DNA from: Thermoplasmatales archaeon SW_10_69_26
Lineage (GTDB): Archaea > Thermoplasmatota > SW-10-69-26
DNA length: 43,279 nt
Assembly: GCA_003009755.1 (NCBI GenBank)
Contig: PXUB01000019.1
Coordinates: forward strand, 74,827-118,105
Reading direction: 5' to 3'
Shown: piece by piece, positions 9,110 to 12,539 of the stretch
Position numbering within the stretch: position 1 is the stretch's first letter
Layout: every line of letters starts with the position of its first letter
Translations under genes and position numbers: made by a program
The notes under the pieces: generated by a model
What the model was told of the DNA's origin: nothing
Databases searched by the model: none
Seen by the model: only the letters and a program-made list of their open reading frames with translations

Positions 9110-10705
9110 TCAGGAGAGGGGCTTGACCATGTAGGGACCCTCGCGCTCGTAGCCGAGCTTGCGGTAGTACTCGCGGGTGCCGACGCCGGCCATCACGAGC
9201 AGCTTGCCGCGTCCGCGTTCGTGGGCGACGTCCTCGGCGCGGCGCATCAGCGCGGTGCCGTGGCCTTGGTGTTGGTGGGATCGGTCGTCGCCGGAGCCGG
9301 CGAGGGGAACCTCGCTGCCGACGACCTTCAGCTCGCGCACGATCGCCGCACCGTCAACCTCGTCGCGGTGGGCGTCCATGGAGGGGATGCGCACGCGGCA
9401 GTAGCCGACGACGGCGTCCTTGCTCGTGTCCTCGACGGCGAGGAACACCTCCTCGCCCCCGCTGGCCTCGTAGCCGTGCTGGGTCTCCTCGAGATCCAGG
9501 GGTTCCTCGGTGCGACGGGGGGCTTCCCGGCAGCGCAGGCACGAGCACTGGGCGCCCATCTCGTCCCACGCGAGCTCGCGCAGGTTCGTCTTGAACACGC
9601 CGGCGGCGATCTCGTGCGTGGGGATGTCGCGCTCGACGCGCTGCACGCGCACCCACGGTGGGACCATGTCGAGGATCTCGCTCACGAGGTCGGCAGCCTC
9701 CTCGTCACCCAGGGGCTCGAACTCGCCGCGCTGGTGTTGCTCGTGCAGCGCGGTGCCGGGCACGACGAGCGTGGGATAGATCTTCAGCATGTCCGGCCGC
9801 AGCCTGGGATCGTCGAACGTCTGGCGGGCCGTCTCGAGATCCATCTCGCGGGAGGACTCGGGCAGGCCCGGCATCAGGTGGTAGCAGACCTTGAGGCCGG
9901 CATCGCGGGCGGTCTGCGATGCTTCGTAGGTGTCCTGCATCGTGTGGCCGCGGTTCGTGGCCGCCAGCACCTCGTCGTAGACGGTCTGGACACCGATCTC
10001 GATCCGCGTGGTGCCCAGGGCCAGCATGTTGTCGACGTGGGGCTTTTGGCACCAATCCGGCTTGGTCTCGAGCGTGAGCCCGATCCCGCGGGCATCGGCC
10101 GTCTCGTTGCGGCGGTGGGCCTCGGCGAGGTCGGCCGAGCGCTGCTCCTCATCGGTGCCGTGGTCGTTCAGCGCGTCGTAGAGGCTCGTGACGAACCGCT
10201 GTTGATCGTCCCAATCGCGGGCCGGGAACGTGCCGCCCTGGACGATGAGATCGACCTTGTCGACGGGGTGCCCGTTGCGTTCCAGATCCTGCAGCCGCGA
10301 GCGGGCCTGGTCGTAGGCGTCGAACCCGTGGCGGTCGGCCCGCCGGGCGGCCGGCTCCTTGCCGGTGTAGCTTTGCGCGGTCCCCATGCGGGGCCCGCCG
10401 GGGCAGAACGTGCACGTGCCGTGCGGGCAGGCCTCGGGCGGCGCCTGCACGGTCACGACCGCCACACCGGACAGCGAACGAGTTGGCTTCTTCACCAGCA
10501 GCGGCTTGAACGCCTCGCGCTCGTCCTCCGGCAAGGCGTTCAACAGCTTGCTGTTCTTCGGGATCTTGGGGACCTCGTGGTCGCGCGCCGTGCGGATCTT
10601 GAGCTTTTGAACGTCCTCGCGGCTGTCCGGAGGGTCCTCCATCATGCGGTCAACGATGTCCTCGAGGTAGGCGTCCAGGCCCAAGGCAGGCCAAGCCAGG
10701 GGCAT
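9110..10705 (-). CDS. elp3: Elp3 tRNA uridine(34) carboxymethyltransferase (radical SAM + GNAT)
   Basis: KPTRSLSGVAVV, CPHGTCTFCPGG, SYTGKEPA, ETKPD, IYPTLV, VRELKVVG, QHQGHG. Start uncertain (ATG 10705 or a TTG slightly downstream). Confidence 0.95.
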   Translation of the reverse strand: MPLAWPALGLDAYLEDIVDRMMEDPPDSREDVQKLKIRTARDHEVPKIPKNSKLLNALPEDEREAFKPLLVKKPTRSLSGVAVVTVQAPPEACPHGTCTFCPGGPRMGTAQSYTGKEPAARRADRHGFDAYDQARSRLQDLERNGHPVDKVDLIVQGGTFPARDWDDQQRFVTSLYDALNDHGTDEEQRSADLAEAHRRNETADARGIGLTLETKPDWCQKPHVDNMLALGTTRIEIGVQTVYDEVLAATNRGHTMQDTYEASQTARDAGLKVCYHLMPGLPESSREMDLETARQTFDDPRLRPDMLKIYPTLVVPGTALHEQHQRGEFEPLGDEEAADLVSEILDMVPPWVRVQRVERDIPTHEIAAGVFKTNLRELAWDEMGAQCSCLRCREAPRRTEEPLDLEETQHGYEASGGEEVFLAVEDTSKDAVVGYCRVRIPSMDAHRDEVDGAAIVRELKVVGSEVPLAGSGDDRSHQHQGHGTALMRRAEDVAHERGRGKLLVMAGVGTREYYRKLGYEREGPYMVKPLS

Positions 10706-10758
10706 CGTCGGGAAGAAGGTTGCGGGGAGGGCGAGGTGGGGTCCAGGTGAGAGCCCGA

Positions 10759-11116
10759 CGGGTCTCATCCTGCGAGCCTAGACCTGAACCCTGGAGGCCT
10801 TCCCTCGCTGGTACGCTCGGTCGACCTCCAGATCCGAACGTCCGGCCTCGCTCTGAGGTCTCGGCCGGACGTTCTCTGGGTCGGATGGTGAAGGCCCGAG
10901 ACCGCTTGGTGACGCCGGTCTCGGGATCCGGACGGATCAGAGATCCGTCCTCTTCCGAGGCGAGCGCTGCGGTCCCCGTCTCGCCTCGGAACGCGCTCGC
11001 CGGGATCCGCGGACGAGCCTGGCGTAAATCACCGAACTCGTCCTCTACGGAGACCGTCCACCTTCACCGGTCTCCGGACGAACCCAAGGGTTCTCATCCC
11101 GGCTCGCAGCGACCCG
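10759..11116 (-). ncRNA. Multi-hairpin structured element downstream of tRNA-Arg
   Basis: Eight inverted repeats of 6-12 bp enclosed by closing stems 10759-10778/11101-11116; several stems extend by G-U pairs on the minus strand. Confidence 0.5.
10992..11006 (-). repeat. 15-bp exact copy of the tRNA-Arg 3' end (att-like)
   Basis: CGCGCTCGCCGGGAT at 10992-11006 and 11122-11136. Confidence 0.7.
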
Positions 11117-11121
11117 GTCAG

Positions 11122-11197
11122 CGCGCTCGCCGGGATTCGAACCCGGGATCCTCGGCTTAGAAGGCCGATGCCTTGGTCCGGACTAGGCTACGAGCGC
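11122..11197 (-). tRNA. tRNA-Arg(TCT), intronless, CCA not encoded
   Basis: GCGCTCG-TA-GCCT...AGGC-A-TCGGC-CT[TCT]AA-GCCGA-GGATC-CCGGG-TTCGAAT-CCCGG-CGAGCGC-G; TAATAT box about 25 nt upstream. Confidence 0.97.
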
Positions 11198-11538
11198 TCA
11201 CAGGTGGCACTGGGCTTCGTCATATTAGTGGCCGGTTCCTGTGGGAAAGCGAGGCAGGCGAGACGCGGACCGCGGTCCGGATCGCCGGAGTCCCTGTCCG
11301 TCAGGCGGACTCCGGCGAGAGCACGGATCTTCGGTCCGTGCCGACCAGGCGACGGGCGCTCGGGCGGGCACTGACCTTCGCTGTATCCGTGACCGGTGCC
11401 CTCGAGACGCCACCGCACCCCATTCTTTGACGATCGTTGCGGCTCCGGGCGTCTCCGTCCGCCATCGGCGGCCACGGTCCGCCCCGTCGGTCGTCCGAAA
11501 ACCTCACAACGATAAACGACGCGCGTGTTGGCGGGGGC

Positions 11539-12539
11539 GTGCCGGCGGACGAGCCGCCTGTGGATGCGGACGAGGGTCCGCCCGAGGAGCCGAAGCCGTT
11601 GGGCCGCCCGGTGCAGGTGAACCAGGCCGATCTCGTCCGTGGGATGATCTGCGTCGGCAAGAAGAAGGCGGTCACGCTGTTGCGCGAGCCCGAGCGCCGG
11701 ACGAGCGAGGTGCACGGGCTGGCGAGCCTGCTCGATGCCTACGTGGCGTTCACGAGCGAGGGGCCGCAGACGTCGGCCTTCTACGACGAGCTCGACAGCC
11801 GCGAGAAGGCCTCCTTCTCCTACCGGGTCGGCATGGGGCTGGCCCTGCTGGCGGCCCAGCACGCGCTCGAGATCCCGTGGCTGATGCACGCCGCCTCGCT
11901 GGAGGCCAGCGGCGGCCCGCATCGAGCCCGAGGACACCGCGCGCGGACCTGATCGGGCTCTCGCTCGACGGGCGCTGGCAGCTGGTGAGAGCGCACGCGC
12001 GCTCGACGGAGATCACGGCCTCGATCGTCGAGGACACCCGTCGCGAGGTGGCCGAGGTGGCCTCGATCAACGACCGGGAGCCGGTCGAGCGGCGGGCCTG
12101 CGTGGCCGGGCTGGGCGAGGCGCCGTTCCGCGTCAGCTTCGAGCCCGGACTCCCGCCGGAGGAGGCCGAGGACGAGGGCCCCGAGGTGCGCTTCCGGATC
12201 GACCCCTCGCAGTACATCGCCGAGTACTACGCCCAGTTTTCGTTCTTCACGAGCCTCGACACGCGCGAGCACACGTTCGCGAAAGACATCGGATGCGGGA
12301 ACCTGCCGCCGGCGGTGCTCTCGGATCTGGAGGGCACGCCATACGAGATCGGGCTGTTGAAACCGCTGCACGATGCCTTGCAACCGCCGGAGGAGCGGGT
12401 CGAGGAGACCCAGAGCCTGGACGAGGCGGTGCCGGGCAAGCGCGGCTGGGAGCCGGCCGATCCCCGCCGGGCCCGCCAGGCGGGCGTGAGCGTGGGCCGG
12501 GATGGCGTCGTCGTGACCGGGCCGGCGCCACCCGGGTAG
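11539..12539 (+). pseudogene. Frameshifted restriction-endonuclease-like (PD-(D/E)xK) protein with degenerate active site
   Basis: GTG 11539 frame gives EKASFSYRVGMGLA..LEIPWLMH and stops at 11952; the sequence continues in another frame as RADLIGLSLDGRWQLVRAHARS to 12539. GATAAA box at 11511. Confidence 0.6.

Follow-up and report, generated by a model that had tools for sequence, protein, structure and literature searches.

Probable RtT-type tRNA-linked repeat units in the trailer of an archaeal tRNA-Arg(UCU) gene

Introduction

In Escherichia coli, 178-bp repeats lie behind the tRNA genes tyrT and tyrV and are known as RtT RNA (rttR; Rfam family RF00391) or, as a class, as tRNA-linked repeats (TLRs). 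[quoted passage not shown] A second paper reports covariation support for a tandem G-A motif in RtT (PMC7657543), and a 2024 preprint still calls the RtT mode of action unknown (bioRxiv 10.1101/2024.07.17.603846). Here, we describe a hairpin-rich interval at positions 10759-11116 of a 43,279-nucleotide (nt) stretch of contig PXUB01000019.1 from Thermoplasmatales archaeon SW_10_69_26 (the window), in which units of this type probably occupy the trailer of a tRNA-Arg(UCU) gene. In a search limited to open-access text, no description of such units in archaea was found.

Elements of other kinds also invite comparison. The t-elements are tRNA-like elements that are processed by RNase P and tRNase Z, while the REP/BIME/REPIN elements of bacteria and the PATEs of haloarchaea are small palindromic modules, rich in G+C, that occur dispersed and form clusters in spacers. 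A first-pass annotation of the window had read the interval as one closed multi-hairpin RNA of about 360 nt, either an undescribed non-coding RNA (ncRNA) or a non-autonomous mobile element. The analysis below leads to another reading, namely that the hairpin-rich stretch is a chain of repeat units partly built from a tRNA tail, not one large RNA.

Results

A complete unit begins directly behind tRNA-Arg(UCU)

Both ARAGORN and Rfam find a single tRNA in the window, tRNA-Arg(UCU) at 11121-11197 on the minus strand (Rfam tRNA score 68.7 bits), in agreement with the first-pass placement of the interval 5 nt after a tRNA gene. The 3′ segment of this tRNA, AATCCCGGCGAGCGCG (11137-11122), is the template copied in the repeat units. 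On the same strand, 11120-10992 constitutes one complete unit of about 130 nt (unit 1), which begins 1 nt after the tRNA and consists, in tRNA orientation, of a trailer, GCCGGGAT, GAG, the arm AACCC-TT-GGGTT, CG, two hairpins and a copy of the tRNA 3′ end. The trailer (11104-11121, placed by coordinates and inverted repeat I1) includes CTGCGAGCC, one arm of the outer stem in the first-pass annotation. It is followed by GCCGGGAT (11096-11103), hereafter T′, which is the reverse complement of ATCCCGGC in the T-stem/acceptor 3′ strand of the tRNA and, by inverted repeat I3 and the fold, supplies the 5′ strand of the closing stem. The head motif, GAG + AACCC-TT-GGGTT + CG (small arm B, 11078-11095), is part of GGATGAGAACC-N3-GGTTCG, a motif carried by unit 1 and also present in the E. 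coli RtT consensus. Hairpin 1 (11048-11077, from inverted repeat I9 and the fold) and hairpin 2 (11011-11043, from coordinates and the fold) come next. The unit ends with the direct copy of the tRNA 3′ end (10992-11009, direct repeat D2), which provides the 3′ strand of the closing stem, matches tRNA positions 11122-11139 at 17 of 18 nucleotides, and stops at the discriminator base because CCA is not encoded. The two direct repeats of the tRNA 3′ part are here separated by 113 non-coding nt. Folded alone, unit 1 forms a four-way junction of −67.0 kcal/mol (z = −4.76; 0/200 shuffles as good), and its closing stem GCCGGGAU/AUCCCGGC is present in both the minimum free energy (MFE) and the centroid structures.

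Beyond unit 1, five hairpin modules, dispersed repeats among them, and another head motif occupy the minus strand from 10991 to 10751. Module 3 (10953-10991, inverted repeat I5) has a perfect 12-bp stem; module 4 (10930-10950), GGACGGATC-TCT-GATCCGTCC, was recognised as a dispersed repeat by genome search; module 5 (10895-10925) corresponds to inverted repeat I8; module 6 (10836-10874, from coordinates and genome matches) has a stem with a CCGAG...CGAGG interior of the tandem G-A type; and module 7 (10793-10829) has the strict CCGAGC...GCGAGG motif in its loop region, at 10803. The second head motif, GGCTCGCAG-GATGAG-ACCC-GTC-GGGCTC (10751-10778, repeats D1 and I1), shares 80% identity over 20 nt with the unit 1 head and is an imperfect complement of the tRNA-Arg 3′ segment. 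Neither hairpins nor a tRNA 3′-end copy follow it, which makes the second unit a truncated one.

Further assignments were considered for the interval. A tRNA intron or bulge-helix-bulge element was rejected since the tRNA is complete without splicing, and a retroelement primer-binding site was rejected since T′ stops short of the tRNA 3′ terminus. As in t-elements, a helix mimicking the 3′ strand of the tRNA acceptor and T-arm could direct tRNA-type end processing, yet unit 1, unlike a t-element, is not recognised by the tRNA covariance model RF00005, which matched only 11122-11197 and nothing in 10650-11120 even at E ≤ 10.

Units of the same build lie behind many tRNA genes of the genome

Copies of a tRNA's own last 16 nt (≤2 mismatches) were found within 800 nt downstream for 18/57 ARAGORN calls and upstream for 1/57; among the tRNAs with a recognisable T-loop, 16/43 carry one or two such 3′-end copies. 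The head motif, generalised as GAT(GAG/TCG/TTG)AAC-N3-9-GTTYR, occurs 21 times genome-wide, 20 of them at most 600 nt behind a tRNA on the same strand, and the single occurrence away from a tRNA (C2:37500, where C numbers denote contigs) is the far end of a tRNA-Gly island described below. These sister units are built like unit 1, with both arms of the closing stem following the local tRNA: T′ is GGAAGGGAT behind tRNA-Arg(TCG), GGGAGCGGGAT behind tRNA-Ser(GCT) and GGGGGACAGGAT behind tRNA-Leu(TAG). In 15/18 motif-bearing units the MFE structure pairs T′ with the terminal 3′-end copy, mostly enclosing three hairpin loops. Pieces of the interval itself recur separately on six other contigs, several of them directly behind other tRNA genes.

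At C17:3650-4150, a unit array stands among ordinary neighbour genes with no tRNA gene nearby. It starts with a tRNA-Arg(CCT)-like 3′ end, finishes with an exact tRNA-Arg(TCT) 3′ end, and contains modules 6-7 and a copy of unit 1 in an order that is circularly permuted relative to the window. No mobile-element genes were found around the tRNA-less copies on C17 and C9, the neighbours being genes for a TPR protein, fumarase, an Lhr helicase and a BNR protein. At C34 ~10065-10250, upstream of tRNA-Arg(CCT), and at C1 ~123230, partial tRNA 5′ parts (acceptor plus D arm) are joined to double-hairpin modules, and one hairpin loop in these 5′-part copies upstream of tRNA genes holds a TTATATC box; 5′ fragments are thus repeated too, not 3′ ends alone.

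The build and motif are common to bacterial units and the RtT family

A metagenome scan for GGATGAGAACCNNNGGTTCG returned at least 122 stretches, and 80 of these were analysed. The motif stood 11-241 nt behind a same-strand tRNA in 44 of the 80 loci, of which 38 have a later copy of the 14-nt 3′ segment of the tRNA and 35 encode CCA, the bacterial habit; among the matches listed, there were several tandem arrays with periods of 114-176 nt. In species-representative genomes, a tRNA was present within 300 nt upstream in 55/80 loci and 32 showed a 3′-end copy within the short flank; the commonest tRNAs were Gln, Ser, Glu, Tyr, Pro and Lys, and, by their titles, the records belong to many bacterial phyla. 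In one record, titled 'archaeon' (L285), a tRNA-Gln with CCA not encoded is followed by two units. A second one (L273), with no tRNA within 300 nt upstream, was judged a chance match.

In the tyrT-tyrV region of E. coli K-12, tRNA-Tyr is followed four times by GGGGAAGGATGAGAAGC, GGTTCGA, hairpins with GA-rich linkers and AATCCTTCCCCCACCACCA. These repeats are the annotated rttR/tpr and score 133-138 bits with Rfam RtT, whose consensus comprises a closing stem, formed by a 5′ segment and the 3′-end copy, and the motif AUGAGAAcC. The curated RtT gathering score of 45 bits was also passed by units in 3/6 bacterial metagenome loci tested (behind tRNA-Glu, tRNA-Gln and tRNA-Tyr; 46.5-65.6 bits). 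In the sister units that align to RtT, the motif is aligned to its counterpart in the consensus; in unit 1 it lies at 11078-11099.

We then built a covariance model from 27 bacterial units only (25 metagenomic and two from E. coli), in which the four outer closing-stem pairs are kept through two-sided changes in 11, 9, 14 and 5 of the 27 units. On this genome, the bacterial-only model gave eight matches at E ≤ 1, each of them a unit that follows a tRNA; six sister units reached E ≤ 4.5e-4 genome-wide, all full length. On the 901-nt region around the interval, unit 1 was the best match and in register (10989-11111, minus strand; 16.5 bits), with E = 2.7e-4 for that stretch, which is not significant genome-wide.

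Unit 1 resembles RtT and the E. coli TLRs in lying directly downstream of a tRNA on the same strand, with a 3′ end that copies the last 16-19 nt of that tRNA (17/18 by the TLR definition), in the closing stem formed by a 5′ segment complementary to this copy, and in the motif GGAUGAGAAcC...GGUUCGA, the GA-rich linkers, the tandem arrays and the variable copy number. It differs from the E. coli repeats in its archaeal host, in that CCA is not encoded and in a copy that stops at the discriminator; its interior is formed of two unrelated hairpins instead of three or four, it stays below the RtT gathering score, the second unit here has acquired dispersed hairpin modules, and such units accompany 16/43 tRNAs. 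By architecture and motif, unit 1 can be classed as a divergent member of the TLR/RtT class. With the build and conserved motif of a known E. coli repeat, the element loses the label 'undescribed' that it had been given, and its match to a known family is weak, staying below threshold with both RtT and the bacterial-unit model. In the Infernal/Rfam search, no family other than tRNA reached its gathering score in the window. The tRNA-downstream palindrome of Methanopyrus was considered and rejected, being a different and short motif (PMC5217627).

Unit number varies between strains, and occurrence in archaea is patchy

Contigs from other sequencing runs of the same habitat type were compared over 9900-12300. 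The contig of run X3 is colinear with 10049-11088 from elp3 onwards, with 48 differences and one gap, and that of run X5 joins 11137 back to 11008, which amounts to an extra tandem unit 1, the direct repeats fixing the period at 130 nt. At locus L019, from another genus of the family, the acceptor of the orthologous tRNA-Arg(TCT) is different, and the inverted copy, CGTCGGGAT, differs so as to match it. Across 40 relatives, the tRNA was the only conserved part of the query and the rest of the interval was unmatched.

The exact head motif was matched in 51/301 genomes of the phylum, ten times in this genome and once or twice in each of the others. No same-strand tRNA was found upstream at any of the 30 phylum loci examined (0 of 30), so that those matches are chance or coding. 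When the bacterial-unit model was run on 151 phylum genomes, with strict filters and few scored candidates, matches at E ≤ 0.001 appeared only in this genome. Viral contigs gave 0 matches to the 21-nt head motif.

The interval folds far better than chance, with no strand preference among the units

All 11 stems listed in the first-pass annotation, the enclosing stems and the pseudoknot included, are perfectly complementary (0 mismatches), and five of the listed stems were also recovered independently as perfect inverted repeats (I4, I5, I8, I9 and I11). Compared with dinucleotide shuffles, the 358-nt interval folds far better on both strands, at −207.4 kcal/mol (z = −7.83; 0/100 shuffles as good) on the minus strand and −193.9 kcal/mol (z = −7.72; 0/100) on the plus strand, and it contains 20 perfect 8-mer complementary pairs, compared with 3.09 ± 2.47 (maximum 14) in 300 shuffles. 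Since shuffles hold about three such pairs, the single 8-nt complementarity of the pseudoknot (10887-94 with 11061-68), perfect as its pairing is, falls within chance.

The fold excess is equal on the two strands, so folding alone does not name the transcribed one. G-U extensions had been taken to favour the minus strand, whose MFE at this interval is 13.5 kcal/mol below that of the plus strand. Over 20 sister units this preference disappears: G-U pairs number 70 in the tRNA sense and 71 in antisense, and only in 13/20 units is the tRNA-sense strand more stable than its complement.

Some hairpin modules are dispersed through the genome

Module 4 is found at ten other genomic places, usually preceded by another hairpin and a GAGA linker, and modules 6+7 are 87-93% identical to stretches behind tRNA-Arg(CCT) on C34 and on C17. 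The hairpin motif CCGAGS-N2-9-SCGAGG, with potential tandem G-A pairs, occurs 704 times genome-wide, compared with 97 for a backwards control and 178 for the perfectly palindromic version. In the window it is present in ten copies on the minus strand and two on the plus strand, and an excess with such strand asymmetry is not expected of plain DNA palindromes. No match was found in the assembly, which is 95% complete, to the Y1 HUH transposase (PF01797) or to a TnpB-type gene (PF07282); mobilisation of the IS200/IS605 or REP type was therefore dropped, there being no supporting transposase gene.

Three integrase islands adjoin tRNA genes

The genome has three tyrosine recombinase genes, all beside tRNA genes and in segments flanked by direct tRNA 3′-end copies. 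A 13.7-kb island at tRNA-Phe (L041, C19:58900-72800) lies about 2 kb before the start of the window and encodes a tyrosine integrase, a Prim-Pol/RepB-type primase, a DNA methylase, a ResIII helicase with a TnsA-like endonuclease domain, KTSC, HerA and a SIR2-like protein; in appearance, the whole is a plasmid-like element that has integrated and carries defence genes. A 4.4-kb islet at tRNA-Gly(CCC) (L042, C2:33000-37700) encodes an integrase and a restriction-modification pair, namely a helix-turn-helix-fused N6/N4 methylase and a BamHI-family endonuclease, and is flanked by direct repeats of ~100 nt in which the tRNA 3′ end and trailer are contained, with an RtT-type unit at its far end. The third island, of 8.5 kb, is at tRNA-Glu(CTC). 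Units of the unit 1 build stand at the far end of two of the three islands (tRNA-Gly and tRNA-Phe). In front of the units, the tRNA-Phe island has a 14-nt junction copy of its own and reads as inserted before units that already existed; integrases therefore act at this tRNA segment as well, without explaining the units.

Neighbourhood of the tRNA gene

The elp3 open frame (9110-10768, minus strand like the tRNA; radical SAM and GNAT domains by Pfam) borders the interval, and its Pfam ELP3_N match begins only with residue 34, which allows for a true start downstream of 10768. The tRNA and elp3 stand head to tail on one strand (9110-11197), with no run of four or more T (T4+) between them. Elp3 acts on U34 of tRNAs that read A-ending codons. 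In none of 19 relatives' tRNA-Arg loci was elp3 found within 1.5 kb of the tRNA, which makes the tRNA-Arg/elp3 pairing a local one. The AT-rich box ACTAATATGA (11220-11229, minus strand), 23-32 nt 5′ of the tRNA, reads as a candidate archaeal TATA box. Two long open frames 5′ of the tRNA, 11241-12539 (plus) and 11188-11937 (minus), have no Pfam match and, in DNA of 69% G+C, may not be genes. The adjoining genes, for GatD and an AF2226-type SPOUT/THUMP methylase, are archaeal, and the genome as a whole measures 2.8 Mb in 49 contigs at 69% G+C. Oligo-T terminators (T4+ runs) were absent inside the trailers of all 16 of the 16 unit-bearing tRNAs, and likewise none of the 27 tRNAs without units had a T4+ run within 30 nt; at 69% G+C such runs are too rare to be informative as terminators.

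Discussion

The reading that we favour, and regard as probable, is that the interval is the trailer of tRNA-Arg(UCU) occupied by RtT-type tRNA-linked repeat units, unit 1 being complete and 10991-10751 being a second unit that has acquired five hairpin modules and lost its 3′ part. It is carried by the anatomy of the unit, the link to tRNA genes in both position and orientation, the tracking of each tRNA by T′, the motif common with E. coli RtT and the strain-variable unit number, all of which are observed. A unit of this kind runs, on the tRNA strand, from a short trailer through T′ (the inverted copy of the T-stem/acceptor 3′ strand), GAG-AACC-N3-GGTT-CG and at least two hairpins to the direct copy of the tRNA 3′ end from T-loop to discriminator; as T′ pairs with this copy, the unit forms a four-way junction, the 3′ strand of which is that of the tRNA itself. 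The array may be cotranscribed with the tRNA from a putative promoter upstream of the latter (the ACTAATATGA box), and each unit could be cut at its tRNA-like 3′ end by the tRNA 3′-end machinery. Recombination between the direct 3′-end copies would change unit number, and the complementarity of T′ might be upheld by selection for the stem or, alternatively, by a switch of template in the inverted repeat.

Several results weigh against this interpretation. The Rfam RtT model has no match in 10650-11250 even at E ≤ 10, and only 4/18 sister units align to it; these do so over their full length, with 16.8-18.3 bits where the gathering score is 45. Unit 1 is absent from the eight whole-genome matches of the bacterial-only model at E ≤ 1, and it encloses two hairpins where most bacterial units have three or four, usually including a CCCGAAGGG-type hairpin. 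Hairpin stability and G-U counts are without strand bias, which fits DNA palindromes as well as RNA. Significant units were found in just 1/151 phylum genomes with the bacterial model under strict filters; occurrence in archaea is thus patchy, and the archaeal and bacterial units may be related by descent or transfer or be alike by convergence. Finally, 10991-10751 has no tRNA 3′-end copy, so it is termed a second unit by virtue of its head motif and of the module order in the relatives on C17 and C34.

The alternatives account for less of this material. That the interval is one closed multi-hairpin RNA of about 360 nt from a new ncRNA gene, as the first-pass annotation had proposed, now seems very improbable. 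Its outer stems are perfect and appear in the MFE structure of the isolated interval, yet they are the trailer and head of unit 1 paired with the second head motif (I1), and in a fold that includes the tRNA, the head segment of unit 1 pairs with the tRNA's own 3′ end and not with the second head, so that the outer pairing has a competitor. The interval is moreover broken by an internal tRNA 3′-end copy into a complete ~130-nt unit and a truncated, expanded one, its pieces recur separately elsewhere in the genome, one strain has an extra copy of unit 1 alone, and in relatives only the tRNA is conserved (n = 40) and elp3 does not stand beside tRNA-Arg (19 loci). The release by tRNA 3′ processing that the first-pass annotation had inferred agrees in spirit with what is proposed for the TLR class. 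Its companion suggestion of a non-autonomous mobile element finds support in part: pieces do recur and unit number does vary between strains, but no transposase family of hairpin elements was found. A related view takes the hairpins, above all those of 10991-10791, for gene-less palindromic repeats of the REP/BIME or PATE kind that accumulate in spacers, the position behind a tRNA being incidental. The modules are indeed short, G+C-rich, palindromic, dispersed and clustered in spacers like those elements; module 4 recurs at ten places that include ordinary spacers, modules 6-7 on C17 in a chromosomal context without a tRNA, and CCGAGS...SCGAGG far exceeds its backwards control (704 vs 97). We nevertheless hold this view to be quite unlikely, since neither a Y1 (HUH) transposase nor a TnpB-type gene was found in the 95%-complete assembly, and since palindromes leave unexplained unit 1 with its templating on the adjoining tRNA, the tRNA-specific arms and the 20/21 link between head motif and tRNA.

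Somewhat less remote, though still unlikely in our judgement, is an origin of the units from integrative elements, as scars or as miniature derivatives. The site at which tyrosine integrases recombine is the tRNA segment from T-loop to 3′ end; each event displaces a 3′-end copy, and internal deletion would then leave the arms next to the attachment (att) sites as units of ~120 nt. A direct repeat of this segment is common to the units and such att sites, the copy finishes at the discriminator as expected of an element that rebuilds the tRNA, and the three recombinase genes beside tRNAs within tRNA 3′-end repeats, the same-build units at the far end of two of these islands and the only head motif far from a tRNA, at the end of the tRNA-Gly island, all point in this direction. 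Repeats that flank present or former integrase DNA exist at those three tRNAs and not at this locus, however: neither here nor at the other 15 loci is there an integrase, cargo or coding DNA between the tRNA and the copy, and the units differ from an att site, or its decayed or cis-mobilisable derivatives, in having an inverted copy and a conserved non-tRNA motif. That motif, with GAG replacing the complement of the T-loop, is common to the E. coli tyrT repeats, which are not known to lie at an integration site. The units at tRNA-Phe appear to be older than the island, whose own 14-nt junction copy stands in front of them, and some 16 different tRNAs would call for as many element lineages, in each of which the inverted and direct copies match.

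A wider and more speculative proposal, which we offer as a minority possibility, more apt to be wrong than right, is that RtT-type units are one cross-domain family of tRNA-templated modules, whose copies re-specify both closing-stem arms on the local tRNA and, through cleavage by the tRNA 3′-end machinery, yield a small RNA with exactly the end of that tRNA. In this genome, such a family would have spread to about a third of the tRNA genes, where hairpin modules would use it as a landing pad and integrases as a reserve of attachment sites. Were this true, the GAG (tandem G-A) junction motif common to bacteria and archaea would mark a universal partner, for example a tRNA-processing or T-arm-binding factor.

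In genome annotation, hairpin-rich tRNA trailers of this kind should not be taken for new ncRNA genes or for prophage scars. The TLR build, including the GGAUGAGAACC...GGUUCG motif and a closing stem that tracks the tRNA, is found here in an archaeon that does not encode CCA and has different tRNA end-processing enzymes, which narrows what the class can depend on. The archaeal units thereby give a second and very different test system for the TLR class, on record since 1978.

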